Below, one piece after another: positions 3,012 to 62,570 of a stretch of DNA of 64,000 nucleotides. Every line of letters begins with the position of its first letter. Position 1 is the first letter of the stretch. Made by a program: the position numbers and the translations under genes. The notes beneath the pieces are model-generated. The model did not search any database. It saw only the letters and a list, made by a program, of their open reading frames with translations, and was not told the DNA's origin. The stretch is from an uncultured Gammaproteobacteria bacterium (GTDB lineage Bacteria > Patescibacteriota > Microgenomatia > Daviesbacterales > UBA10151), in assembly GCA_964504985.1 (NCBI GenBank), contig CAZDFU010000002.1:11782-75781 (forward strand). The letters are read 5' to 3'.

Positions 3012-3281
3012 TTAGAGACTAGATTTCTCCTTTCCTTTTTCATCATCTGGCTCTGGATTCTTAACTTTAGACTCCAGTTGCTGTACTAATTCTTTTTGTC
3101 TGACAACAGTTAATATTTGAGCCAAATCCTTTTTCTTTTTTGAAATCATTCTCACATCTTTCAATTTTTTCATATTTTTATCCACTACCAGGTTTGCAAT
3201 ATCCTCCCGGATAGTTTTAGCCTTTAATTTTAGTTCTTTAATATCTAAACCTTTTATTTCTATTAAACCGTTTTTTTTCAT
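3012..3281 (-). CDS. rpmC: 50S ribosomal protein L29 (uL29) with C-terminal extension
   Basis: Helical L29-like N-terminus (LKGLDIKELKLKAKTIREDIANL); position between rplP and rpsQ. Confidence 0.8.
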   Translation of the reverse strand: MKKNGLIEIKGLDIKELKLKAKTIREDIANLVVDKNMKKLKDVRMISKKKKDLAQILTVVRQKELVQQLESKVKNPEPDDEKGKEKSSL

Positions 3282-3283
3282 AG

Positions 3284-3694
3284 CTATTTTGTTATAATTT
3301 TTGTTTCAATAGGCAGTTTATGTGAAGCCAGTCTTAATGCTTCTTTAGCAATAATTTCTGTTACTGCACCCATTTCAAAAATTAATTGCCCTCTTTTAAC
3401 AACAGCCACATACCCTTCCACATCACCTTTTCCAGACCCCATTCTACTCTCTGCAGGATGTTTTGTAACTGGTTTATCCGGAAAAATCCTGATCCAGATA
3501 CGTCCGCCTCTTTGAGTATAATGGGCCATAGCCCTTCGGGCTGATTCGATTTGTCTGGCGCTAATCCAACCTGCTTCCATTGCTTTTAGCCCGAATATTC
3601 CAAAAGCCAAACTAACACCCCTGGTGGCAACCCCATCTCTTTTTCCCCTAAAGGTTTTCCTGTGTTTATTTCTTTTTGGTTGCAAAAGTGCCAT
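3284..3694 (-). CDS. rplP: 50S ribosomal protein L16 (uL16)
   Basis: [19 protein letters not shown]... canonical L16. Confidence 0.95.
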
Positions 3695-3695
3695 A

Positions 3696-4337
3696 TTAAA
3701 TCTCCACCTCTCCTTTGTTTATCCATACCTTTACTCCAACATAACCAGACTTTGTCAAGGCTGGGTAAACTGCAAAATCTATATCTGCTCTTAAAGTATG
3801 TAAAGGCATTGTTCCCGAAGCTTTCCATTCCCTCCGCGCAATTTCTGCTCCACCAATTCTTCCTGAGATAACTACTTTCACCCCTTTTGCCCCAACCCGC
3901 ATTACCCTATCTATAGCCTGATTCATTACCCTTTGAGCTGGTAACCTTTTAGCAAGCTGCTCAGCAACTGATTGGGCAACAAGGTATGCAGAAAGATCTG
4001 CTGATTTTAACTCCATTGGCACAACTTCCAAACTATTATCGTTTTTAACCGCCAGCTCCTTAAGTAAAAGTTTCTTAACTTCAGTTAAACCACTTCCCCC
4101 TCTGCCAATTAAAACTCCTGGACGGGAAACAAAAATTATGACTTTTAACTTGTTAACTGCTCTCTCTATCTCTACAGACTGAATACCAGCAGGTCTTAAT
4201 TTCTTCATCAAAATATCCCTGATTTCTATATCTTCTTTTATAAACTGTCTGTATTTATCACCTTTTGCAAACCACCGGGATTTCCAATTAGCTCCTATAC
4301 CCATTCTGAAACCTACCGGATGTATTTTTTGTCCCAT
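3696..4337 (-). CDS. rpsC: 30S ribosomal protein S3 (uS3)
   Basis: [13 protein letters not shown]... KH domain; canonical S3. Confidence 0.95.
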
Positions 4338-25209: not shown

Positions 25210-25851
25210 TCAAATCATTTTACCCAAAACAATAAGTCTTTTAAAATTTAATCCAGGAGGCACACAAGTCATCAAAGTTATATACCTGCCTTGTATTTCA
25301 GGAGCATTAATAACTGATATATCAGAAGGGTCAATTGCCTTCAAAGAAACAACCTGATATTTATACTTAGCCCCACTGGCCTCAATTATTATCTCATCAC
25401 CCTTTTTGAGATCTGTCAGGTTGGCAAAGAAAGCGGTTTTTAAACTAAAAAATTTGCTAAGGGCAGAATGGCCTGATATGAACACATTCCCTTTCTCGCC
25501 AGGCAAAGACGAACCTGGAAGATGAACCAATCCAGCTGATAAATCATTGCTGTCAACGAGAACTTGTACCTTATCTATCTTTAGCTTGGGAACTGATAAA
25601 ACAAATTCCTCATAGTTAGCTTTTGTTTCTCTTCTTAAACTTGAGATAATTGCTGGAAAGTTATTTTGTGTTTGGATGGATACGCCCAAAACCTGGGTAT
25701 CTTTTGTTTGCTTCGGACTAAAAAGTATCTGATTATTATAACCTTGTCCAATTAACCAAATTTGATATGAAATAATTGGCATAATTATCTGAATTAACAA
25801 AAATACTCCAATGAATAAAAAAGCAAGCGGTATTGCCTTCCCGAAAATCAT
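25210..25851 (-). CDS. Sortase family transpeptidase
   Basis: N-terminal TM; catalytic His in FISGHS; TLMTCVP active-site Cys motif; ATGA-coupled to the upstream 733-aa ORF. Confidence 0.8.
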   Translation of the reverse strand: MIFGKAIPLAFLFIGVFLLIQIIMPIISYQIWLIGQGYNNQILFSPKQTKDTQVLGVSIQTQNNFPAIISSLRRETKANYEEFVLSVPKLKIDKVQVLVDSNDLSAGLVHLPGSSLPGEKGNVFISGHSALSKFFSLKTAFFANLTDLKKGDEIIIEASGAKYKYQVVSLKAIDPSDISVINAPEIQGRYITLMTCVPPGLNFKRLIVLGKMI

Positions 25852-29987: not shown

Positions 29988-30632
29988 TTACTTGTCACTT
30001 TTTAAAAACACCGTTCTTTCTATTTTTGTCTGCTTGCCACCTTTTGAACTAGCTATTATTACAATTTTACTGACATTTTCTGAGATTTTAATTTGTTGAG
30101 AGAACTTTCCATCTTCTTCAACACCTATCTCCTGGTCATTAATACTAACCTTTGCCTCCGGATCAGTTTTCCCTGAGATAATAATTTCATTGGAAGTTGC
30201 ATTAAATTGATCAACTGGTTGATCTACTTCTAAAAGCGGGGATCCCACCAAAGATCTGTATTGAAACCAAAGATAGACAAAAAAAATTATTACCAGGGCA
30301 ATAACCACACTCACTAAAACATTAGTGGGAGTTATCCGAAACCTTTTTTTATCCATAGGGTTACTAAAAGATTCTAAAACCCTTGGAGGATTCTTATTCT
30401 CGGAAAATTCCCTTCTAAAAATTGCCAAAAGTTTCTCTGTATTTAACCCTAAAAATTTCCCATAGTTTTTAATAAAACCCTGAATAAAAGTAGTTGGGGG
30501 GAGTTTTTGATACTGGCCTTGCTCTAAGGCTTCCAGCAATTCCTTTCTGATTTTGGTGGCTTTTTCTATCTCATCAAGAGTATAAAACTTTTTTTCCCTC
30601 TCTTGTTTTAGAACATCACCCACAGTTCTCAT
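29988..30632 (-). CDS. rodZ: Cytoskeleton protein RodZ (HTH plus TM)
   Basis: Xre-type HTH DVLKQEREKKFYTLDEIEKATKIRKELLEALE...FIQGFIKNYGKFLGL, then a TM helix. Confidence 0.75.
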   Translation of the reverse strand: MRTVGDVLKQEREKKFYTLDEIEKATKIRKELLEALEQGQYQKLPPTTFIQGFIKNYGKFLGLNTEKLLAIFRREFSENKNPPRVLESFSNPMDKKRFRITPTNVLVSVVIALVIIFFVYLWFQYRSLVGSPLLEVDQPVDQFNATSNEIIISGKTDPEAKVSINDQEIGVEEDGKFSQQIKISENVSKIVIIASSKGGKQTKIERTVFLKSDK

Positions 30633-30636
30633 ACTT

Positions 30637-31443
30637 TCAATGGGTATTATATATACTCTCAACCAAAGTTACCAATCCGTTGTTTGAAACATCCGGAATT
30701 ACTAAATCTGCAATTTTCTTGAGCTCCTTTGGAGCATTTTCCATAGCAACTTTATAACCACAAACAGATAGCAAAGGATAGTCATTATACCCATCCCCCA
30801 CCCCTATCATATTTTCAGGGTGAATTTTAAGTATTTTAGATAATTCTAAAACCGCTAAGTGTTTGGTGGCTTTTTGGGAAGTAATATCCAATACTGTAGC
30901 AGTGCCGATACCGCTTCTAATAAAATGAAGGTCTTTATATAACTTTGTCAGCCTTTTTTCTAAGATTTTTGGGGCATCAATTTTAGTAATTTCTGATAAA
31001 ACTAATTTTGCAACTTTGTGATAATTTAATTCTTTTAAATCTTTAAAATTTATTCCTGGACCATAACCTAATGCTTTATGCCCGGCATTTTTTATGTAAA
31101 CTGCTCCTTCGCTTTCAACTGAAAAATCATAAATTTTCTCTAAAAAATAGTTGATTATTTTTTTTGCAGTACCGGCTGGAAAATGTTCATACCAAAGCAC
31201 CTTCTCAAATTGAGGATCAATTATTTCTGCCCCTCCTGAAACAATTTGAGGGGATAATAAATTTAAATCCTTACATATTTTTTTAACAATCCCCTTAAAG
31301 GGTCTGCCTGTAGCAAGGGAGATAATAATCCCTTTTTTTTCTAAATTAGATACTGCATCTTTTACCTCAGGTGTGATATAAAAATTAGCATCTACTAATG
31401 TCCCATCAAAATCCAAAATTAAAGCCTTAAACTTTTTACCCAT
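30637..31443 (-). CDS. HAD-superfamily hydrolase, Cof-like (subfamily IIB)
   Basis: LILDFDGTLVD motif I; GDGYND motif. Confidence 0.75.
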   Translation of the reverse strand: MGKKFKALILDFDGTLVDANFYITPEVKDAVSNLEKKGIIISLATGRPFKGIVKKICKDLNLLSPQIVSGGAEIIDPQFEKVLWYEHFPAGTAKKIINYFLEKIYDFSVESEGAVYIKNAGHKALGYGPGINFKDLKELNYHKVAKLVLSEITKIDAPKILEKRLTKLYKDLHFIRSGIGTATVLDITSQKATKHLAVLELSKILKIHPENMIGVGDGYNDYPLLSVCGYKVAMENAPKELKKIADLVIPDVSNNGLVTLVESIYNTH

Positions 31444-39892: not shown

Positions 39893-42800
39893 CTACTTTA
39901 TTATTAAACGGAAGAGAACGAAACCACCCAGAAGCAGCACTACGATCACCATCACTACCTTAACATTAAAAGGCAAACCTTCTCCTGCTTTTTTTTGAGC
40001 TTGGGCTGCAGGCTGAGAACTTTCTGTTGCTTCACCTTGTACCTGACCCTGTTCACCAACACCAATATTACCCTGCTGATTTTCACCAGACACACCTAAC
40101 ACTCCAGAAGCAAATCCAACGGCTGTTGGTTGTATCGAGACTCCCAAAACCTGATTTTGCGGGGAGGTACTTCTAACGGAACAGTCATGGACTGCACAAC
40201 CTAATCCATCTCCACCATCACCTCCACTGCTTGAACTTGTGGAAGAAGTTGAGGTAGAAGTGGAACCAGTATGAGTAGTAGCATAGTATGAAGCCTTGGT
40301 GGCTTGGAATATACATAAACCATTACTTACTACACAGGTGGCAGGAGCTACAATCCCGTCAGATGTCCAGCCTGATGAAGTGCTGGAAGAACGGACTACA
40401 TTAAGTGTTTGTCCATTTAAAGCTGTTCCCACATAAATGTTTATAGTGATGGGACTGCTAAAACTTAACCCCAAATTAGGTATCCCCCATTGCATGGCCC
40501 CGTCAACCACCACTCCTGTCCCAAGTCCTGATAATGATCCTGTGGTGACATTTTGCGCGCTTAACAAAGACGTATCAATTAATCCCCCATCAGTTCTGGT
40601 AATAATAGTATTGGCTGGCAAAGATACGCTGCTTGTTCCGCCATTAACGCTGACGTTAATTGTGGAATCTCCCAAGACTACAATGGAAGAGGTTGAGCTC
40701 CCATCCCCGCTGGTGGGCACAAACTTGGCATCACTAAGCTGTTGGAAAGGAGCATTTCCAAACCTTAAAGGCTGGTCATTTTTATCCTTGGTAATTGAGG
40801 TTTCACCTTCCGTGGTCTGGCCACCAACTTCCACAAAAATATCAAAGAAGGAATCCACCTGAGGGTGGGTTCTTTGGAAATTATCCTGTGTGCTCTCAGT
40901 CATTCTATAAGTTCCCGGTTTATCTACCTCAAAAGAAGCTTTCCCATCATCATTGGTGGGAAGGATCCTTAGCCCCCCGTAGATAATTTCCTCGGTCATT
41001 ACCGGAGGTTGACCCTCAACCGGGTTAGGGGTTGAGGCGAGTGTTTTAATTGCTTCCTCTATCCTCATATCCCAGCCACCAATACCTAACTCACCTTTAT
41101 CCCATTCCCCATCTGCATTCAAATCTTTCCACTTAAAGATATCAATAATCACCTTCTTAAAATTACCAAAATCAATACCACTTACATCATTGCCTGATTG
41201 AGCCTCAATATCCGAAGGATTAGTAGTAGTCTGTATCCAGCCACTTTGTGAAGCTTCTCTCACTCTGTAAGTGCCGGGACGCAGATTATCAAGGCTGTAA
41301 CTGCCGTCTTCGCCTGTGGTAGCGGATTTCTCACCCTCATCAAAAACCCCGTTACTGTTTCCGTCGATAAAAATAGTCCAGCCGGACAATCTTTGGTCAG
41401 GATGATTAGGATCATTTGGATTATAAGAACCGTCAGCTATCATGTCCTCAAATTTCCAACCAGAGATAGTAATCTTTTTGAAATTTCCAAAATCATTATT
41501 TTCAGAATTCTCCCCTGCAGATAATGTTATCTCATATCCGTTTGTGCCATCCGGACAAATGGGGTTATTCAATGGGGTAGTTTGTGTCCAACCATCGAAG
41601 TTATCTGTACTGGTAGCGATATCCTCACAGACCCGATAAGTACCAGGTAAAAGATTTTCAAACAGATACTGTCCTGTATCTGCATCACCTGTCCAGGATT
41701 CCAAAGTTGTGTCATTATTTGGTCCACCGCTTAGGGTAATCCGCCAGCTATCTTCCTCCCACTCATTTTCTCTATCCCAGACCCCGTCTCCATTAGTGTC
41801 TATAAATTTATAGCCACTGATTGAGCCCCGCTTGGTGTTAGTAAAAGTACAGGTGATCGTTTCTCCGGTATTAGGTGTAATACTGTCGGGAGTATTGGTA
41901 CCGGTACAGGATGAACTGGTTAAATCCCAGCCCTCAGGAACATTCTCAGAAATACTGTAAGTATCGTCCGGATCAATATCAGTGAATGTTTGACTACCGC
42001 TGTTCGCTAATGTGGTTATCTGGGAAGAAGAAGCAGGCAGATTTTGACTGCTCATCTCAAAATCAAAAGTGTCATCACCTCCCAGAGTATTCTTCACTAA
42101 GACGATAGTGGCTAACTCTTTGTTGGTAAAAGTACAGGTAACAGTCTCACCGGCGCTGACATCAATTGCATCAACTGAGCTACCATCGCTACAAACGGCG
42201 CTGCTCAATTTCCATCCCGGCACTTCATCTTCTGAAACAGCATAGTTGCCGGGGAAAACTTCGGAGTCCTGGCTCTTTTTAAGCGTATTGGTTTCACTAC
42301 CGTCATCATCGAGCTGGAAGGTATCGGGGTTGCCGTTGCCAAAATTATTATGGAAGGTAAAATCCTGAGCGTTATTGGAAATGGCATCTTTGACAATAAC
42401 GACATGGCCATTAGGAATGACTGTAATGTCGAAGGTACGGGAGAAGAAGAGATCTAGGCTGTCAGTAGCTGTCACTGTAATAGTGGCTGTGCCACTGGAA
42501 TTGGCAACCGGCGTATAGGTCAGCGTTCGGGTAGCGCCGGAGCCGGAAACAGTCGGGTTTGGCACAACTGAAGCATCATTTGAGGTTGCAGACAAAATTA
42601 CTGTTTGATCAGATTCATCTGAGGGACCAGGGGAAATATTGGTGATGGTAATATTTTGTGCACCAACATCTTCATTAACTGTCTGGTTGGCAATTGCATC
42701 AAAAGACGGAGGGCGGTTATAGTTAACAGTGACATCTTGTAAAGTTGGAGTGGTATTAACAGTACCGGAAGTAGTTGCCCGCCACTGAAAATATTGATAC

Positions 42801-44200
42801 GTATCAGGCAAGGCGCTGCTTAAGTCTATTGGAGAGTTGGCTGATCCTAAAGATACCCAGGATGGACTAGTATCACCTTTGGCAAAAGCGGTATTTGATG
42901 CCCTAACTTCAAAAGTAATATCAGTTCCGGCAGCAAGACTTTCATTCCAGGATAAGGTTGAGTAAATAGTTGAGGTAGAGTTTGTATCTTTAACCTCTGA
43001 TATTTGAGTACCGCTGGTTCCGTATGTTTTATATTTTTCTGTAAAAATAAAATCATCCCCAAAATTAGTTGGCCAAGTAGAACCGCTATTGGTTGATTTA
43101 TATCCCCCTCCGCCAGTATAATCCGTGCTGCTGTTTTCACGGTACCAATCATAATCATCAGTGTCTGAGGTATTTGCCCGATGTACTACAATAGCGTATT
43201 GTGTGCCTGTGGTAACCGGGGCAGGTGAGGAAAAAACAAAGTTCACATTTCCCTTTGCGGTGGGAAGAGATGTAGGACTAACTGAGGCTGTTGCCAGGGG
43301 AGATGATGCGGTAGGTAAACCGCTGCTGGTGTTTCTAATTTCAACTGTCACATCTCCTGAACCATCATCGCTATTTTGTTTTCTTAGGCTTAAAGTTAAG
43401 CCAGTCAGCATTCCGTTTTGGGCAGGGGTGAAAGTTTGAGCTAACCATTTGGCACTGTCGAAAGTTTCTGCCGTTGTCCCTGTTGTTTGCAATTGATCAA
43501 CTATCTCTGAACCCAAGGCATTAGTCACACTGCCATCGCCACCTCCCACATCAGTGACAGTAGTTCCCGAAGAGGTTCCATTATTAAAATCTGTGACGGT
43601 GGTTACCACAAAGATAGTAAAATGGTTTAAACCTGTAATAGTGAGAGTATCTGTTTGGGCTGTTACTCCTCCTAAAGTAACAAAGGTCTGGTTATCTTCT
43701 GAGGCTTTAACCTCTACCTGTTCAGTTTTTGGGGTAGGCAAAGTTAAGGTATATTCAAAGGTACCATTTTCCATAGTAGAAGTGATATCATAAGCTTTGT
43801 CTGTCACAGGGTTTAAATTGTCATCTCCCAGGGAATTTACAGGTACTTCTTTAATTGAGATTTTGCCCGGGTTGGAAGGAAGTTTATTGAATTTTAATGT
43901 TACTTTATCATTTTGCGGAGCTTTGTATAATTGGTCAATCCTGACGTTTTCATGGGTGATGGCTATACCGCCGGGCCCATTATCCCAATCCAATACAGAT
44001 AAGGAAGCTGGCTCAACTGCTACAGCAGGAGAAACTGTTGCCGAAGCTGTAGACTCAAAAGATGTGTCTAAAACAACCTGACTATTTAACTGAGCAGAAG
44101 TAGTGGCTTCCTGGGCCAGAACCGGGAAAGTATATTGCCCAAACAATAATAAAAAGACAGTAATTAAACTAAACGCCTTTTTTAAACCTTTAAAAAACAT
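39893..44200 (-). CDS. Giant cell-surface repeat protein (1435 aa): signal peptide, Ser/Thr-rich regions, paired ...GETxTCTFTN prealbumin-like modules, several SdrD-B-type repeats (PGTYRVxE), C-terminal TM anchor
   Basis: N-terminal signal LITVFLLLFGQYTFPVLAQE; repeats GYKFIDTNGDGVWD...PGTYRVCE and GWKFEDMIADGSYN...PGTYRVRE; C-terminus VVMVIVVLLLGGFVLFRLIIK. Confidence 0.75.
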   Translation of the reverse strand: MFFKGLKKAFSLITVFLLLFGQYTFPVLAQEATTSAQLNSQVVLDTSFESTASATVSPAVAVEPASLSVLDWDNGPGGIAITHENVRIDQLYKAPQNDKVTLKFNKLPSNPGKISIKEVPVNSLGDDNLNPVTDKAYDITSTMENGTFEYTLTLPTPKTEQVEVKASEDNQTFVTLGGVTAQTDTLTITGLNHFTIFVVTTVTDFNNGTSSGTTVTDVGGGDGSVTNALGSEIVDQLQTTGTTAETFDSAKWLAQTFTPAQNGMLTGLTLSLRKQNSDDGSGDVTVEIRNTSSGLPTASSPLATASVSPTSLPTAKGNVNFVFSSPAPVTTGTQYAIVVHRANTSDTDDYDWYRENSSTDYTGGGGYKSTNSGSTWPTNFGDDFIFTEKYKTYGTSGTQISEVKDTNSTSTIYSTLSWNESLAAGTDITFEVRASNTAFAKGDTSPSWVSLGSANSPIDLSSALPDTYQYFQWRATTSGTVNTTPTLQDVTVNYNRPPSFDAIANQTVNEDVGAQNITITNISPGPSDESDQTVILSATSNDASVVPNPTVSGSGATRTLTYTPVANSSGTATITVTATDSLDLFFSRTFDITVIPNGHVVIVKDAISNNAQDFTFHNNFGNGNPDTFQLDDDGSETNTLKKSQDSEVFPGNYAVSEDEVPGWKLSSAVCSDGSSVDAIDVSAGETVTCTFTNKELATIVLVKNTLGGDDTFDFEMSSQNLPASSSQITTLANSGSQTFTDIDPDDTYSISENVPEGWDLTSSSCTGTNTPDSITPNTGETITCTFTNTKRGSISGYKFIDTNGDGVWDRENEWEEDSWRITLSGGPNNDTTLESWTGDADTGQYLFENLLPGTYRVCEDIATSTDNFDGWTQTTPLNNPICPDGTNGYEITLSAGENSENNDFGNFKKITISGWKFEDMIADGSYNPNDPNHPDQRLSGWTIFIDGNSNGVFDEGEKSATTGEDGSYSLDNLRPGTYRVREASQSGWIQTTTNPSDIEAQSGNDVSGIDFGNFKKVIIDIFKWKDLNADGEWDKGELGIGGWDMRIEEAIKTLASTPNPVEGQPPVMTEEIIYGGLRILPTNDDGKASFEVDKPGTYRMTESTQDNFQRTHPQVDSFFDIFVEVGGQTTEGETSITKDKNDQPLRFGNAPFQQLSDAKFVPTSGDGSSTSSIVVLGDSTINVSVNGGTSSVSLPANTIITRTDGGLIDTSLLSAQNVTTGSLSGLGTGVVVDGAMQWGIPNLGLSFSSPITINIYVGTALNGQTLNVVRSSSTSSGWTSDGIVAPATCVVSNGLCIFQATKASYYATTHTGSTSTSTSSTSSSSGGDGGDGLGCAVHDCSVRSTSPQNQVLGVSIQPTAVGFASGVLGVSGENQQGNIGVGEQGQVQGEATESSQPAAQAQKKAGEGLPFNVKVVMVIVVLLLGGFVLFRLIIK

Positions 44201-57622: not shown

Positions 57623-59263
57623 TTATACAGTGCCTGTCTCTGGGAGCATCTCTTTTGATTTAATTTTAGTTTGAAATTTGGCAACCCCCATAATTAAATC
57701 TGCATAAGTTTTAAGCTCTCCCACCTTTAAAAACCATACCAGCAAAACATAAACAGACAAGGCAAAGATTGCTGATAATCCTGTCATGACTAAAAGGTTT
57801 ATAGTTCTTGTGGTATCAAAAATTACCTGGTCTAAAAGTTTAATAGGAATGTATAATGCCATACCCATAATAATTGTTGCCATAAGCATCTTTAAGAAAG
57901 GAATTAGCACTATGGTTAAATTAAACTTTCCTACTTTGATATGAAGTGTCCAAAAAAGCATTATTCCTGACATCAGAGCAGAAACCGAGTTGGCCAAACC
58001 AATACTCCAAATAGGAAGTTTCAAAACCCATATAAAATAAATACTGAGCACAATGTTTGTCAGAACCACCCCCAAAGATACCAGAACAGGTGTTTTTGTG
58101 TCTTTCAAAGCATAAAACCCCCTGACAAAAAGCAAAGACACTGCCTGAGAAGCAAGGCCAATAGAGAGAAATGCTAAAGTTGCCCCTGTTAAAACAGTTG
58201 CCTGCCAGTCAAATTGGCTCGCCCCAAAAACAAGTCTAACCACAGGAATCCTTATTACAATTAAAATGGCTGTTGCGGGCAGAGCTAAAAATAGGATCTG
58301 ATGCATGGTTGTCAAAAGTGTCACTTTAAATTCCTCAATTTTTCCTCTGGCTCTTTCTGATGAAAGTACTGGCAAGGCTGCCTGGGCAAGCGTTGCCCCA
58401 AACAGGCCTATTGGCACAACCTGTAAGTGCGAAGCAAAAGTCAGATAAGTTAAAGATCCGATAGCAGATATTGATGCTAAAGCTACTCCGACTGTTTCAT
58501 TAATCTGTTCAGCAGCTAAACCTATGGTTCTCATGCTCATTAGTTTTATTATTTCTTTTACACCCGGATGAAATAGTTTTAGAGGAAACTTAAACCTAAA
58601 CCCCATCGACCAAACTAGAGGCAGTTGGATTAAAGTGTGCAAAATTGCCCCTATTAACACCCCCATTGCTGCACCTTTAATACCTAAAGACCCGGATAGA
58701 AATAGTATCCCCAAAATCATCCCTGAGTTGTAAAAGACAGATGCAAAGGCAGGAATTATAAATCTTTGGAAAGATTGTAATATTCCAATAAAAAATGAAC
58801 CCACAGCCAAAACTATTTGGCCAAACAGTATTATTCTTGTCAATTCTACAACCTGTGCTTGTCTGCTTTCGGTAAAACCCGGAACTATTACCGAAGCTGT
58901 GAGAACAGGAGCAAAGATATAAATAAAAACAGTTACAAAAATAAAGATTACAAGAGCCATGTTTAACACTGACCTTGCCATCTCAAAAGCTGCATCTTTA
59001 CCTTTTTCTTCTAAGTGCTCTGTGAAAACAGGGATAAAAGCTACTGATAACGCCCCTAGAATAAGCAGTTGAAAAATTAGATCAGGCAGTCTTAGGGCTG
59101 CAAAAAATATTTCTGTTTTATCAGGGGTAAAAAGATGGGCAAGGAGCCGGTCGCGGACTAGTCCCAGGATTTTTGACAAAATAACTGTCATCATAATAAT
59201 TAATGCCCCGGAAAGAATAGAGGTTTGTCTTGAATACAGGAGGGAAAAAAGATTTTTTACCAT
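57623..59263 (-). CDS. murJ: Lipid II flippase MurJ (MviN)
   Basis: LSKILGLVRDRLLAHLFT N-terminal motif; ~14 TM helices; start taken at MVKNLF. Confidence 0.85.
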   Translation of the reverse strand: MVKNLFSLLYSRQTSILSGALIIMMTVILSKILGLVRDRLLAHLFTPDKTEIFFAALRLPDLIFQLLILGALSVAFIPVFTEHLEEKGKDAAFEMARSVLNMALVIFIFVTVFIYIFAPVLTASVIVPGFTESRQAQVVELTRIILFGQIVLAVGSFFIGILQSFQRFIIPAFASVFYNSGMILGILFLSGSLGIKGAAMGVLIGAILHTLIQLPLVWSMGFRFKFPLKLFHPGVKEIIKLMSMRTIGLAAEQINETVGVALASISAIGSLTYLTFASHLQVVPIGLFGATLAQAALPVLSSERARGKIEEFKVTLLTTMHQILFLALPATAILIVIRIPVVRLVFGASQFDWQATVLTGATLAFLSIGLASQAVSLLFVRGFYALKDTKTPVLVSLGVVLTNIVLSIYFIWVLKLPIWSIGLANSVSALMSGIMLFWTLHIKVGKFNLTIVLIPFLKMLMATIIMGMALYIPIKLLDQVIFDTTRTINLLVMTGLSAIFALSVYVLLVWFLKVGELKTYADLIMGVAKFQTKIKSKEMLPETGTV

Positions 59264-59347
59264 AAAATCAGTGTAGCATTCTTGCTTGCGCAAAGGTAGA
59301 GGCTATGATACCATATCGGAATCCTGATCCGTCGGGATAAAAAAAGT

Positions 59348-59578
59348 ATGCCAATTATCAAATCAGCAATAAAAAAGGTCAGAAAAGATAAGGTAAGAAC
59401 AGCCCGTAATAAAAAAAGGGGGGGTGTTTTAAAATCTTTAGTAAAGAAAGCCCGGGAATCAAAAACAACCAAGAATTTACAATTGGCATTTTCCGCTTTG
59501 GATAAAGCTGCCAAAGTAAAATTAATCCACCCAAACAAGGCTGCGCGCTTAAAATCAAGACTGTCAAAGAAATCTTAA
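59348..59578 (+). CDS. rpsT: 30S ribosomal protein S20 (bS20)
   Basis: MPIIKSAIKKVRKDKVRTARNKKR...LIHPNKAARLKSRL. Confidence 0.9.
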   Translation: MPIIKSAIKKVRKDKVRTARNKKRGGVLKSLVKKARESKTTKNLQLAFSALDKAAKVKLIHPNKAARLKSRLSKKS

Positions 59579-59622
59579 CTACCCACTACAACCTACCACC
59601 AGCAACCTAGTATAATGTACTC

Positions 59623-60207
59623 ATGCCCAAACAAAAGAGCCTTAAACTTGGTATACACCTGGATTTACTAAGGCCTCAAAGTAATCCTGAACAACTTTTA
59701 ACAAAACTTTTGCGTTGGTTGCTCTCTACCGGTCGCTACATATTTGTCTTTGTGGAAGCTCTGGTTTTAATAGTTTTTATTGCCAGGTTCAAATTAGATG
59801 AGGAGTTAGCTTTAAAAAAAGAAACAATTGAGAGCCAGATTCCCTATATTGAGAGTCTAAAACCTTTTGAACTCTTGGCAAGGCAGACCCAGCTTAAGCT
59901 AACAACTATTTCCTCCCTCCGTAGATCTGGTGCTGACTATCCTCTGGTTTTAAAAAACATTGCCGATCAAACTCCCATGGGGATAACAATCGGCAGTATC
60001 AGGATGGAAAAAACCGCCCAGCAGGTAATTATCCAATTAAATGGCATTGCTCCAAATAATGGCGATTTGGCTAACTTCTTAAGCGGATTAAAACAAGAAC
60101 CGCTCCTTTCAGATGTTAGTATTACCAGTGTTGGTTTTGATAAAGGCAGTTTAAATTTCAGCATAACAGCCAAGTCAAAGGCCTCTGCTGCGGGGAGCAA
60201 TCTATGA
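59623..60207 (+). CDS. pilN: Type IV pilus assembly protein PilN-like
   Basis: Short cytoplasmic N-terminus with an INLLP-like motif (IHLDLLRP), one TM, coiled coil, ~110-aa C-domain; ATGA-coupled to the next gene. Confidence 0.55.
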   Translation: MPKQKSLKLGIHLDLLRPQSNPEQLLTKLLRWLLSTGRYIFVFVEALVLIVFIARFKLDEELALKKETIESQIPYIESLKPFELLARQTQLKLTTISSLRRSGADYPLVLKNIADQTPMGITIGSIRMEKTAQQVIIQLNGIAPNNGDLANFLSGLKQEPLLSDVSITSVGFDKGSLNFSITAKSKASAAGSNL

Positions 60208-60809
60208 GAAGTCAATCTCAAATCTACTCCAGGTATTTTACTTATATAAAACCCTTTATTAGACACCCTTTTGTTAGAACTTACGGCTCAACGGTTTTTA
60301 CGCTTTTGGTTATGAGCATCCTCATAGTGTATGCCATCAAACCAACTGTGGAAACTATTTTAGTTTTGCAAAAGAAACTGGCTGACTCGAATGAAGTTGC
60401 GGAAAAGATTACCCAGAAGACAAACAACTTATCAAAAGCTCAAGAAAATTATGCCAATTTGGATCCAGATATTAAATCTAAAATTGAGACAGCCATACCT
60501 GATAGCGTTTCACTTAAATCGCTTATGCAGACACTTGAACAAACTGCCAAAAAATATGAGGCTTCAGTTTCTGCGTTGCAAATCCAGCCATTAGTTTTGG
60601 AGGCTAAAACAGATGAAAAAGTGGGCAGTCTTTCGGATGTTTCTTTTACCCTCAGCGCTGAGGGAGAGTATCAAAAAATAATTTCTATATTGCAGGATTT
60701 GATGGTTAGTGATAGGTTAATTTCGATAGACAATGTATCCTTATCAAAGCTAAGCGAAGGATCAGGGATCGCTATATCCCTTTCCGGAAAAGCCTATTAT
60801 ATTAAATAA
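60204..60809 (+). CDS. pilO: Type IV pilus assembly protein PilO-like
   Basis: TM plus coiled coil plus C-terminal domain (FTLSAEGEYQKIISILQDLMVSDRLISIDNVSL, PilO-like). Confidence 0.55.
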   Translation: MRSQSQIYSRYFTYIKPFIRHPFVRTYGSTVFTLLVMSILIVYAIKPTVETILVLQKKLADSNEVAEKITQKTNNLSKAQENYANLDPDIKSKIETAIPDSVSLKSLMQTLEQTAKKYEASVSALQIQPLVLEAKTDEKVGSLSDVSFTLSAEGEYQKIISILQDLMVSDRLISIDNVSLSKLSEGSGIAISLSGKAYYIK

Positions 60810-60816
60810 TTTCAAT

Positions 60817-60993
60817 ATGATAAAAAAAGAATGGTTGATTTTGGCAATTATAACTTTTATCACAATCTCTGCCTGGGTGATATTTGATATATTCCACGCC
60901 CGCGCCCGCGTTGAAATCTCTCCGAAAGTACAGGAGGCAATTGAACCCTTAAACCCAGAGTTTGATATTTCAGGGCTTAAGACTGCACCATGA
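60817..60993 (+). CDS. Small single-TM protein (58 aa), not in ORF track; stop overlaps the next start (ATGA)
   Basis: Manual translation MIKKEWLILAIITFITISAWVIFDIFHARARVEISPKVQEAIEPLNPEFDISGLKTAP. Confidence 0.4.
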   Translation: MIKKEWLILAIITFITISAWVIFDIFHARARVEISPKVQEAIEPLNPEFDISGLKTAP

Positions 60994-61940
60994 ATGATTT
61001 TCTAAGCAAGTTCAGGATCCCCACTCTTTTAGGACTTGGTATTATAATTTCTGCAATAACAGCAGGTGTATTCTTAGTTTTAAAAGAACAAACTATTACC
61101 TCTCAGGCCTCACCTAACCTGACGGTTCAAAATATCACCCTGACCAACCTTTCGGATGACTCAGCAACCATTTTTTGGCAAACTTCTGCTGCCCTGCCTT
61201 CTTTTATAACCTTAGGTTCTCAAAATCCCAGTGAAACCACCATTTTAGATGACAGAGACACCATTCCCGCCTCAGACAATGCAGGACCAAAGGCCCGTTT
61301 ATTACACTATGCCACCATAAAAAATCTTCTTCCTAAAACAACTTACCGCTATAAAATTACCTCTGGAAACTCATCTTCAGATACTTTTGAGTTTACCACT
61401 GCTGCGCCGCTTAACTTTCAAACAGGACAAAGACCGGTTATAGGGTCTGTGCTTGATGGAGACAAACCGCTTGCAGAGGCTGTAGCTATTCTTTCTATCA
61501 CTAACGCAGCTACGCAATCTGCTTTAATCAAAGAGGATGGTAATTTTTTAATACCTATATCTCAAGTCAGGAAAGCAGATCTTTCCGAAGGCATATCTTT
61601 AACAGAAAACACCACTGCCAAATTAACTATTTTGTCTACAAAAGGACAGGCTGCTGCCATTTTTAGGCTAGCTGACTTTGAAAACGGACTGCCTCCTATT
61701 GTTTTGGGAGAAAATCTGGATCTTACTTCTTTGAAGGAGAATTTAACTAAGTATGATTTAAATGCGGATGGCGGAATAAACTCAACAGATTATTCAATTG
61801 TTTTTCAAAATCTAGGCCCTTTGCGTGAAGCCTTTCCACAACGTAAACAAGTAGGTAAAAATCCTAAAGCTGATTTAAACTCGGACGGAGTTGTTGATCA
61901 GAAAGATTTGGATCTGATTTCAAAACAAATTAACAAGTGA
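60990..61940 (+). CDS. Membrane-anchored protein with fibronectin type III-like domain and C-terminal type I dockerin repeats
   Basis: N-terminal TM; Fn3-like segment SDDSATIFWQTS...TYRYKITSGNSSSDTFEFTTA; Ca-binding loops DLNADGGINSTD and DLNSDGVVDQKD. Confidence 0.65.
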   Translation: MNDFLSKFRIPTLLGLGIIISAITAGVFLVLKEQTITSQASPNLTVQNITLTNLSDDSATIFWQTSAALPSFITLGSQNPSETTILDDRDTIPASDNAGPKARLLHYATIKNLLPKTTYRYKITSGNSSSDTFEFTTAAPLNFQTGQRPVIGSVLDGDKPLAEAVAILSITNAATQSALIKEDGNFLIPISQVRKADLSEGISLTENTTAKLTILSTKGQAAAIFRLADFENGLPPIVLGENLDLTSLKENLTKYDLNADGGINSTDYSIVFQNLGPLREAFPQRKQVGKNPKADLNSDGVVDQKDLDLISKQINK

Positions 61941-62570
61941 AAATTCAGCATGATCTTTTTCCATGAGCCCGCTTTTAAGTTTAAAATCTATTTCTAAAAC
62001 ATTCCTGTAAAGATTTATTACTTTATTCTGGGTAAAACTTTTTCTTTGTTTTTCAAGTTTATCTTTGACAAATTGAGGGGCATTTTTGGGGGTGGCTATT
62101 AAATTTCTTAAAAGATAAAAGGTCATAGTAATTAAATAGTGAATATCAAATCCTGCCTTTTTAAGTTTTTCTATTTCTAAAAATGCCTTTTTATCGCCCA
62201 TTACCAGATAATCTAAAAACGGAAAAACTGATACTTCTTTTCCCTCCGGAAAAAATAACATCTGACCCTTTGATTTTTTCAACCACTCAAAGACAGGTTT
62301 TTTCTCTGACACCTCATGATCAAACCAAAGAACCAGGCTATAGGTTGCATAAGCTAAGGGGTAATTAGTGAAGTCTTCCGGAGGGTTTTCCAATATCACC
62401 AATCTCTCTCCATCAAAAATAGACTGAGAAGACAAACATGTTAAAATTACTCCCAAGTCCTGGCCTTTTTCAAATACTGTTACATTATCAGCCAAAAATT
62501 TGCTGCGCAGCTGCCAAAGTTTATTCCTGGAAGAGTTAATTGCTGGCCCGTGCAGAAGATGTAGCATCAT
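61920..62570 (-). CDS. holA: DNA polymerase III delta subunit-like protein (short, 216 aa)
   Basis: Weak resemblance to the HolA C-terminal helical region (...AGFDIHYLITMTFYLLRNLI...); assignment tentative. Confidence 0.4.
   Translation of the reverse strand: MMLHLLHGPAINSSRNKLWQLRSKFLADNVTVFEKGQDLGVILTCLSSQSIFDGERLVILENPPEDFTNYPLAYATYSLVLWFDHEVSEKKPVFEWLKKSKGQMLFFPEGKEVSVFPFLDYLVMGDKKAFLEIEKLKKAGFDIHYLITMTFYLLRNLIATPKNAPQFVKDKLEKQRKSFTQNKVINLYRNVLEIDFKLKSGLMEKDHAEFSLVNLF

Follow-up and report, generated by a model that had tools for sequence, protein, structure and literature searches.

Why would a bacterium of the candidate phyla radiation (CPR) encode a dockerin beside two genes of a pilus platform? 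Cohesin-dockerin pairs are connectors of extracellular enzyme complexes, whereas PilN and PilO form a membrane alignment platform in type IV pili and type II secretion. Both meet in the 64,000-nucleotide stretch analyzed here (the window; contig CAZDFU010000002.1 of assembly GCA_964504985.1), in which a gene that we call FnDoc closes a tight unit with pilN and pilO. The reading that we favor, tentatively and with a confidence slightly short of even, is that FnDoc is a stalk-like structural subunit, docked at its tip to a cell-anchored cohesin, of a membrane module that comprises PilN, PilO, a small protein, and FnDoc itself and is conserved in Daviesbacteria and related Microgenomates. All of these modules are known; their combination is new. 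The gene and the parts of its product are as follows.

60990-61940, plus strand: FnDoc gene (name used here), ATG start, 316 amino acids; transmembrane (TM) helix, Fn3-like domain, second beta-sandwich, and dockerin.
61017-61088, plus strand: N-terminal hydrophobic helix, residues 10-33, opening with the invariant [KR]IPT[LI]LGL; AlphaFold helix 10-39; probable membrane anchor.
61125-61403, plus strand: Fn3-like beta-sandwich, residues 46-138; PF16656 above its cut-off; predicted strands 47-136.
61434-61724, plus strand: second beta-sandwich, residues 149-245; seven predicted strands; conserved C-terminal LG[EQ][ND]LDL motif; no Pfam family.
61752-61937, plus strand: dockerin, residues 255-316 (PF00404); calcium loop 1 D256-D267 (61755-61790) and calcium loop 2 D295-D306 (61872-61907), with a helix after each loop.

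A sequence-only reading of this stretch had proposed a C-terminal dockerin, and every string that it quoted (IFWQTS, TYRYKITS, FEFTTA, DLNADGGINSTDYSIVFQNL, and DLNSDGVVDQKDLDLISKQI) is contained in the FnDoc translation. The dockerin is genuine. Dockerin_1 (PF00404) matches residues 255-315 with 42.9 bits (E = 5.6e-11; cut-off 22.9) along profile positions 2-57 of 57, covering both repeats, and ligand conservation and fold matches agree with this assignment. In both repeats, loop positions 1, 3, 5, 9, and 12 hold D or N. Across 46 species, D256, N258, D260, N264, D267, D295, N297, D299, and D306 are conserved at 96-100% and D303 at 83%; judged from sequence, both calcium loops are under purifying selection. 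Conservation also extends to non-ligand residues on the helix of repeat 2 (Q304, 76%; K305, 89%; D308, 78%; L309, 93%), with Q304, D308, and L309 each reaching at least 90% in a 32-sequence alignment.

Structure points the same way. When residues 238-316 were modeled separately and searched against the PDB with Foldseek, ranks 1-18 were all dockerins from cohesin-dockerin complexes, headed by 2ozn_B, the non-cellulosomal NagH dockerin, and calmodulin-type EF-hand proteins ranked below them. The probabilities of these dockerin matches were 0.57-0.99 and the query TM-scores 0.45-0.60; the E-values were weak (at least 0.1) because the domain is tiny. Likewise, the best match of the FnDoc family profile among PDB sequences was the dockerin 2y3n_B (E = 5e-9), with calmodulins at about 1e-5. 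On the modeled structure, the C-terminus is thus a dockerin fold and not a generic EF-hand pair. Disorder of these segments, named in the sequence-only reading as the outcome that would count against it, is not predicted, as AlphaFold places a helix after each calcium loop. The designation "type I" in that reading has to be dropped: it is merely the name of the PF00404 family, the structural matches include dockerins from type II complexes, and the type of a dockerin such as this is not assignable without its partner.

The inter-repeat linker is short in the FnDoc family generally. The protein of the window carries an insertion of about 10 residues between the repeats, LREAFPQRKQ (residues ~279-288, window 61824-61853), which has no counterpart in most family members and is shared in part by about 10% of the 46 species.

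Calcium binding might itself be the function of this domain. In such a case, the EF-hand-like pair would act as a Ca2+-binding sensor and control the PilN/O machine with no cohesin involved; a calcium site of this kind, that of PilY1, modulates pilus dynamics in Pseudomonas. The calmodulin EF-hand pairs matched by the family profile at about 1e-5, the status of the calcium ligands as the most strictly conserved residues, and the lack of a cohesin near the operon in Daviesbacteria loci all fit this explanation. Nevertheless, dockerins outrank EF-hand proteins in both the sequence and the fold searches, the conservation of Q304, K305, D308, and L309 indicates a protein-binding face, and sister lineages co-encode cohesins, as described below. 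We therefore consider a calcium sensor improbable.

The remainder of FnDoc is consistent with a membrane-held stalk. The AlphaFold model of the whole protein, built from 32 homologs, has a mean predicted local distance difference test (pLDDT) score of 79 and contains a helix (10-39), two beta-sandwiches (47-136 and 150-244), and helices 265-273 and 304-315 after the calcium loops. The Fn3-like domain announced in the sequence-only reading stands as a fold, with PF16656 (Pur_ac_phosph_N, an Fn3-like family) matching residues 48-137 at 42.3 bits (cut-off 30); the fn3 family proper, PF00041, stays below threshold at 18 bits (cut-off 25). The strands of this sandwich (47-136) are modeled at a pLDDT of 85-92, and the whole model matches only tandem Fn3 proteins in the PDB (Foldseek, E down to 2e-6). 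Taken together, the PF16656 score, the predicted sandwich, and the Foldseek matches identify FnDoc as an Fn3 beta-sandwich protein.

The second sandwich is a feature beyond those first noticed. No family was matched when Pfam was run on this middle domain alone, and the equivalent region of the ortholog at locus L053 (related loci are given here by L numbers) has a sub-threshold CarboxypepD_reg match. The possibility that it is a cohesin in cis was considered and rejected: at about 95 residues it is too small for a cohesin, it has seven strands, and it matches neither PF00963 nor a lineage-specific cohesin hidden Markov model (HMM) built from the cohesin sequences of sister lineages.

The N-terminal helix is likely an uncleaved membrane anchor, in agreement with the anchoring first proposed. 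In the 46 species, the TM segment and the dockerin repeats are the most conserved segments of FnDoc; the former exceeds both sandwiches, with a mean top-residue frequency of 0.71 versus 0.60 for the Fn3 domain. In the 32-sequence alignment P11 and T12 never vary, and the [KR]IPT[LI]LGL motif is also kept in distant members. Conservation of a TM helix above that of the ectodomains is expected if the helix packs against membrane partners.

A P-T-[LI]-L motif recurs at the starts of membrane helices in these loci. It is found at the N-terminus of FnDoc ([KR]IPT[LI]LGL, residues 10-17, window 61017-61040, with P and T invariant) and at that of one cohesin (RPTILWL, L055:2280-2320). Similar motifs (LTPTLLL, NPTFLF, and FLPTILI) occur at the C-terminal anchors of three cohesins (L055:2888-3547, L056:5652-6281, and L056:6319-6975) and of a dockerin-less FnDoc ortholog (L053:9001-10350). 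The recurrent motif may serve to cap the N-terminus of the helix or as a signal for sorting or processing.

Three genes lie directly upstream of FnDoc.

59623-60207, plus strand: pilN-like gene, 194 amino acids; PilN (PF05137), 35.6 bits (cut-off 22.8).
60204-60809, plus strand: pilO-like gene, 201 amino acids; PilO (PF04350), 30.6 bits (cut-off 22), and T2SSM_b, 29.3 bits.
60817-60993, plus strand: gene for a 58-residue bitopic membrane protein, third of the unit; one TM helix and an external EP[IL]xPxF[DN] motif.

FnDoc is the last gene of the tightly packed unit pilN, pilO, 58-residue gene, and FnDoc. Its description as co-operonic with pilN and pilO is supported by the 4-bp overlaps within the unit and by the retention of its order across loci. 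The adjacent pilN and pilO, both above their Pfam cut-offs, overlap by 4 bp, as do the 58-residue open reading frame (ORF) and FnDoc. PilN is bitopic, and its cytoplasmic N-terminus bears L[ND]LL[KR]P, a motif conserved in 45 loci that resembles INLLP, the PilN peptide that binds PilM. PilO shares 39-67% identity among Daviesbacteria loci and 25-31% with the four sister-lineage loci in which it is complete. The 58-residue protein, which had likewise gone unremarked, is present in every related locus at 48-69% identity, with the TM motif TFITI.AW[IV].F[DE]..H; counterparts are recognizable in L053, L055, and L056, and longer versions occur in L048, L050, L051, and L054, the distant ones with proline/threonine-rich tails. 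It belongs to no Pfam or NCBIfam family, and NCBIfam returned no match for FnDoc or PilN either. On the flanks, rpsT lies 44 bp upstream of pilN, and the convergent holA overlaps the 3′ end of FnDoc by 21 bp; upstream of that overlap, the opposite strand of the FnDoc gene holds no ORF of at least 50 codons. Promoter and terminator scans of 59200-62200 performed no better than on shuffled sequence.

Related loci were collected by a scan that took one genome per species and yielded 43 loci, all from Daviesbacteria-type metagenome-assembled genomes (MAGs); the uncultured organism behind the window is accordingly a CPR bacterium of the Daviesbacteria lineage. The order pilN, pilO, small ORF, and FnDoc is intact in every Daviesbacteria-type locus, in a set of about 50 Daviesbacteria and Microgenomates loci, and the junctions within the unit are mostly 4-bp overlaps (about 45 loci). 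Could this order simply have been inherited in a small, slowly rearranging genome, without any shared function? The synteny of the whole lepA-to-FemAB region across Daviesbacteria and the frequency with which unrelated genes overlap in the window would suit that explanation. However, 12 loci carry insertions of 0.8-4.5 kb, every one of them outside the unit and none inside: six between rpsT and pilN (L014, L017, L018, L036, L043, and L050) and six between FnDoc and holA (L009, L010, L013, L016, L026, and L047). The unit also survives changed flanks. In L054, where rpsT is inverted, MurJ lies co-directional upstream, and Bac_transf and Wzy genes lie downstream, it still comprises PilN, PilO, a 163-residue homolog of the small protein, and a 561-residue ortholog of FnDoc without a dockerin; it likewise persists in L053, L055, and L056, with changed flanks in the latter two. 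As the insertions respect its boundaries and it persists where the flanks change, the four genes behave as one unit. Moreover, the C-terminal module of the FnDoc ortholog co-varies with adjacent cohesins. Mere inherited neighborhood accordingly has only a slim chance of being the explanation.

Both boundaries of the unit are insertion hot spots (L014:3487-4566; L017:1970-2635 and 3240-3914; L010:6907-7920; L026:6994-11194; L047:6839-10783). Their cargo includes PIN-type toxin-antitoxin genes, a reverse-transcriptase-like ORF, BadF/BcrA-type activase genes, amino-acid metabolism genes, and small membrane proteins starting with QKG[LF]xPILI.

The family extends well beyond these loci. The architecture of FnDoc recurs in 545 full-length homologs, of which the few with names belong to Candidatus Daviesbacteria or Microgenomates. 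An exhaustive HMMER search returned 573 proteins below 1e-30, among them more than 100 clusters (50% identity) of proteins of about 300 residues matched over their full length. With such numbers, the architecture is no product of chance. The remaining HMMER matches (P0126, P0140, P0152, and others) are giant metagenome proteins of 2,000-6,300 residues that match through 12-32 repeated Fn3-like or dockerin-like stretches; one bears the annotation Ca-binding EF-hand superfamily protein, and their architecture is unrelated to that of the ~300-residue family. Many public MAG records (loci L005, L006, L008, L010, L011, and others; CAZ... and CAY... accessions), some labeled "uncultured Gammaproteobacteria", have Daviesbacteria-type gene content and 50-60% protein identity, so their taxonomy labels look wrong.

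Support for a cohesin partner comes from sister lineages, which were reached with the most divergent family member, P0236, as query. In L055 and L056, three single-cohesin genes lie directly upstream of pilN, the last one overlapping it, and the FnDoc orthologs of these loci retain Dockerin_1 matches of 35.9 and 38.8 bits, respectively. The cohesins adjacent to pilN score 39.3 bits (L055) and 47.5 bits (L056) against PF00963 (cut-off 24.1); the others reach 35.5 and 28.4 bits in L056 and 23.2 and 22.7 bits in L055. The cohesin next to pilN in L056 is weakly closest to CipA type I cohesins (E = 2e-3). Two short loci on metagenome contigs, L057 and L058, show the order 513-residue protein, cohesin, cohesin, cohesin, PilN, and PilO, both ending before the FnDoc ortholog; they were found by a metagenome scan with a 2-sequence cohesin alignment, a 10-sequence alignment being too divergent. 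One cohesin type has an N-terminal anchor, and the other two consist of a signal peptide, a cohesin, a proline/threonine linker, and a C-terminal hydrophobic anchor. Because sister lineages place cohesin genes directly before pilN, a cohesin-dockerin link in a pilus-platform-like complex looks plausible. The link that the sequence-only reading had envisaged on the PilN/PilO module therefore gains strong indirect support from cohesins that overlap or precede pilN in L055-L058, while none was found in the window or near the operon in Daviesbacteria loci.

The 513-residue protein that heads the cohesin-pilN cluster (L055:738-2276; L056:3219-4757) combines a weak cohesin-like N-terminal region with Ig/PKD, Fn3-like, and dockerin domains; no counterpart was seen in the window.

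Other lineages lack the dockerin. In L053, the 449-residue ortholog has exchanged it for a linker, a Big_13/Big_6 Ig-like domain, a C-terminal hydrophobic anchor, and a basic tail, and in L054 the protein ends in a linker followed by a hydrophobic segment with a basic tail, with neither a dockerin nor an Ig-like domain. Two of the three cohesins share their kind of C-terminal anchor with these dockerin-less orthologs. Because the latter bear such an anchor themselves, the pairing of dockerin and cohesin seems to be a non-covalent stand-in for a direct distal anchor. In L053, an operon 5 kb upstream encodes a TM-anchored cohesin (PF00963, 39.5 bits), a protein with a near-threshold dockerin, and a GH39 enzyme without a dockerin. 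Used as a query, this cohesin retrieved only six close relatives, none named Daviesbacteria; the search says little, as it required shared 5-mers.

A lineage-variable tip also invites another explanation, namely that FnDoc is a host- or substrate-attachment adaptor, merely co-expressed with pilN and pilO, whose dockerin binds a ligand outside the PilN/O machine, such as a secreted or host protein or a glycan. An adhesin role has been proposed for non-cellulosomal dockerins of other ultra-small bacteria (PMC10066038), and Saccharibacteria possess an essential dockerin-domain envelope protein (PMC10633639). The C-terminal module differs by lineage (a dockerin, the Ig-like Big_13 in L053, neither in L054), as is typical of adhesin tips, and Daviesbacteria loci have no cohesin near the operon. 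However, the tip does not evolve fast: few parts of FnDoc are better conserved than its dockerin repeats, and in repeat 2 the window protein and the ortholog of the cohesin-encoding locus L056 are identical at 15 of 17 positions (ADLNxDGVVDQKDLxLI), which suggests a conserved partner surface. Furthermore, the cohesins of the sister loci are anchored to the cell itself, and the orthologs without a dockerin end in a membrane or wall anchor, leaving no free tip. We regard the adaptor as unlikely, if less so than the other alternatives.

The cohesin operons also allow a cellulosome-like explanation to be weighed, in which the dockerin serves a polysaccharide- or protein-degrading complex and the pilN/pilO neighbors are incidental. 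This is how cohesin and dockerin proteins of Microgenomates were read for Shapirobacterales (PMC9123182). The GH39 gene in the L053 cohesin operon might be cited for it, as might an S8 protease upstream in L056 with one 27-residue match to a dockerin-like repeat. Nevertheless, that single repeat-like match is the sole exception to a consistent pattern: none of the two-repeat dockerin proteins in these loci (FnDoc, the 513-residue proteins, and a 430-residue protein) has a catalytic domain, and the GH39 enzyme lacks a dockerin. Each cohesin protein comprises one cohesin and a membrane anchor, and neither a multi-cohesin scaffoldin nor a carbohydrate-binding module (CBM) was found in the related loci. 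In the window, FnDoc is the only dockerin-like ORF, and no glycoside hydrolase with a dockerin is encoded. With every two-repeat dockerin protein of these loci non-catalytic and each cohesin single and anchored, we do not read the system as a cellulosome, and we give this explanation little credence.

Several observations weigh against the favored reading of FnDoc as a docked stalk. No cohesin (PF00963) was found among the window ORFs scanned with Pfam, a scan that covered the 58-residue ORF and 35 of the 57 ORFs of at least 120 residues. The lineage-specific cohesin HMM found none among all window ORFs of at least 60 residues, and none at distances of up to 6-10 kb from the operon in about 45 Daviesbacteria loci; the window amounts to less than 10% of its genome. 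The cohesin partner of Daviesbacteria, if it exists, is thus unlinked to the operon; to judge from the sequences its existence is likely, since the partner-facing residues are conserved and repeat 2 is near-identical to that of a cohesin-linked lineage. In addition, pilM, pilB, pilC, and pilin genes are missing from the 35 window ORFs scanned, and neither these nor pilT are linked in any related locus seen. Pilus assembly, which the sequence-only reading had associated with the PilN/PilO pair, therefore does not follow, and with no other pil genes linked, a pilus role is argued for only by the PilN/PilO family assignments and the INLLP-like motif. Some family members (P0157 and P0249) lack the dockerin without an obvious replacement. 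Additionally, an S-x-A motif after the N-terminal helix is conserved in the core Daviesbacteria group (as S-Q-A, with A at residue 40 of FnDoc) and is a possible signal-peptidase site; cleavage there would free FnDoc from the membrane, which leaves the proposed anchoring likely but qualified. Finally, gene overlaps are common in the window genome, including between unrelated genes, which makes them weak evidence for a unit when taken alone, and most loci are closely syntenic Daviesbacteria and not phylogenetically independent.

The sequences show the architecture of FnDoc, its intact dockerin, the conserved operon unit, and the proximity of cohesin genes to pilN in sister lineages. We infer the association of FnDoc with PilN/O, its binding to a cohesin, and any role in type IV pili, and on that footing the following mechanism is proposed. 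The N-terminal helix would fix FnDoc in the cytoplasmic membrane, next to PilN, PilO, and the small protein, each of which crosses it once. The two beta-sandwiches are predicted to form an extracytoplasmic stalk of roughly 8-10 nm, and the Ca2+-loaded dockerin at its end would plug into a cell-anchored protein with a single cohesin. Where the dockerin is missing, the FnDoc ortholog would be anchored distally by its own C-terminal hydrophobic segment, which looks like an equivalent solution. In this way, a PilM/N/O-type platform would be tied to the outer layer of an envelope of monoderm type, a task carried out in diderms by PilP-PilQ or by GspC and the secretin; no secretin was seen here. In line with such an envelope, the window encodes monoderm-type wall markers (a sortase, an LCP ligase, MurJ, and a surface protein with a sorting-signal-like C-terminus) among otherwise housekeeping genes, and no secretin or outer-membrane gene was found among the window ORFs scanned.

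A broader proposal, which we consider doubtful but worth stating, is that Microgenomates possess an envelope-spanning machine in which a cohesin-dockerin plug joins a PilN/PilO platform to the outer layer and replaces the PilP- or GspC-secretin link, which is absent from monoderm-like CPR cells; alternatively, the PilN/O-like base might carry a non-pilus surface scaffold, for example for host attachment. If true, this would be the first use of the cellulosome connector inside a pilus- or secretion-type nanomachine; our literature searches found no description of a dockerin or cohesin genetically linked with pilN/pilO in CPR bacteria. It would also assign a definite structural role to non-cellulosomal dockerins, hint at the way in which ultra-small, host-dependent bacteria fix pilus-type machines across their unusual envelope without a secretin, and caution against taking cohesin and dockerin matches in CPR genomes and proteomes as signs of cellulose degradation. 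The hypothesis is cheaply testable, as both modules are easily expressed and simple to assay for binding.

Elsewhere in the window, a 1435-residue SpaA/SdrD-like surface protein (39893-44200, minus strand) starts with a signal peptide and bears at its C-terminus GEGLPFNV, then a hydrophobic segment and a basic tail, which together resemble a sorting signal of non-canonical form. The sortase gene (25210-25851, minus strand) adjoins the gene for a 733-residue protein with a marginal Baseplate_J match. Another gene (29988-30662, minus strand) encodes a 224-residue protein that pairs, unusually, an HTH_25 (RodZ-like) N-terminus with a C-terminal Glucodextran_B-type beta-sandwich. Up to 54 kb, almost every gene lies on the minus strand, with the rpsT-pilN operon among the few plus-strand units, and the GC skew is strongly negative (down to -0.33) in all 2-kb windows but one across positions 1-64000. 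This bias is reminiscent of a strand disparity reportedly present, going by a paper title, in another Microgenomates genome.

Among known systems, cellulosomal dockerins such as those of Clostridium thermocellum Xyn10B/CipA (PDB 1OHZ and 2CCL) and Pseudobacteroides cellulosolvens Cel48 (2Y3N) resemble that of FnDoc in their two tandem F-hand repeats of about 22 residues with D or N at loop positions 1, 3, 5, 9, and 12. FnDoc passes PF00404, its best PDB sequence match is 2y3n_B, and its best fold matches are dockerins. The systems differ in that FnDoc lacks an enzyme module and carries a membrane anchor of its own, that the cohesins of its relatives are single and membrane-anchored with no scaffoldin or CBM, and that its gene belongs to a pilN/pilO operon in a CPR bacterium whose genome measures about 0.8 Mb. 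Dockerin-bearing carbohydrate-active enzymes together with a multi-cohesin scaffoldin bearing a CBM, the hallmark of a cellulosome, were found neither in the window nor in the related loci. Closer in spirit is the NagH-NagJ pair of Clostridium perfringens (PDB 2OZN), which uses the module outside plant cell-wall degradation and supplied the top Foldseek match, 2ozn_B. Non-cellulosomal cohesin and dockerin modules were reportedly surveyed by Peer et al. in 2009. Such pairs join secreted glycosidases or toxins, whereas the FnDoc pair would join two envelope-anchored, non-catalytic proteins.

Within the CPR, the Saccharibacterium Southlakia epibionticum has two PilM-PilN-PilO clusters (SEML1_0104-0107 and SEML1_0760-0764), each with a small ORF directly after pilO, as in the window; the one after the first cluster is essential, and the second cluster continues with a beta-rich PRC-barrel protein (PMC10633639). 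In contrast to the FnDoc locus, pilM and ATPase/platform genes are linked there, and no dockerin or cohesin is. The essential dockerin-domain protein of this organism, SEML1_0315, is encoded elsewhere; it was considered as an FnDoc ortholog and rejected, as hydrolase and tRNA genes and not pil genes flank it (PMC10633639). In Candidatus Shapirobacterales, which also belong to the Microgenomates superphylum, cohesin-domain proteins are highly expressed and abundant in situ by metaproteomics (PMC9123182). In the available part of that report, the authors read these as a cellulosome and mention no link to pilN/pilO; we count the expression of the cohesins in favor of a docked FnDoc stalk.

The diderm PilM-PilN-PilO-PilP(-PilQ) system shares with the FnDoc locus adjacent, translationally coupled pilN and pilO genes, a gene for an extracytoplasmic beta-sandwich protein in the pilP position, and an INLLP-like motif in PilN. 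It differs in having pilM and pilQ, and an additional small TM protein is encoded between pilO and FnDoc. FnDoc matches no PilP family in Pfam and has no cysteine or lipobox in its N-terminus; a TM helix serves as its anchor, and at its distal end it would bind a cohesin instead of the N0 domain of a secretin. GspC of the type II secretion system has an N-terminal TM helix, a periplasmic beta-sandwich, and a C-terminal interaction module (a PDZ domain or a coiled coil), and is encoded alongside GspL and GspM. Although FnDoc has no sequence similarity to GspC and no secretin to bind, the two proteins share this design logic, and FnDoc is likewise encoded beside relatives of GspL and GspM, its PilO neighbor matching T2SSM_b.

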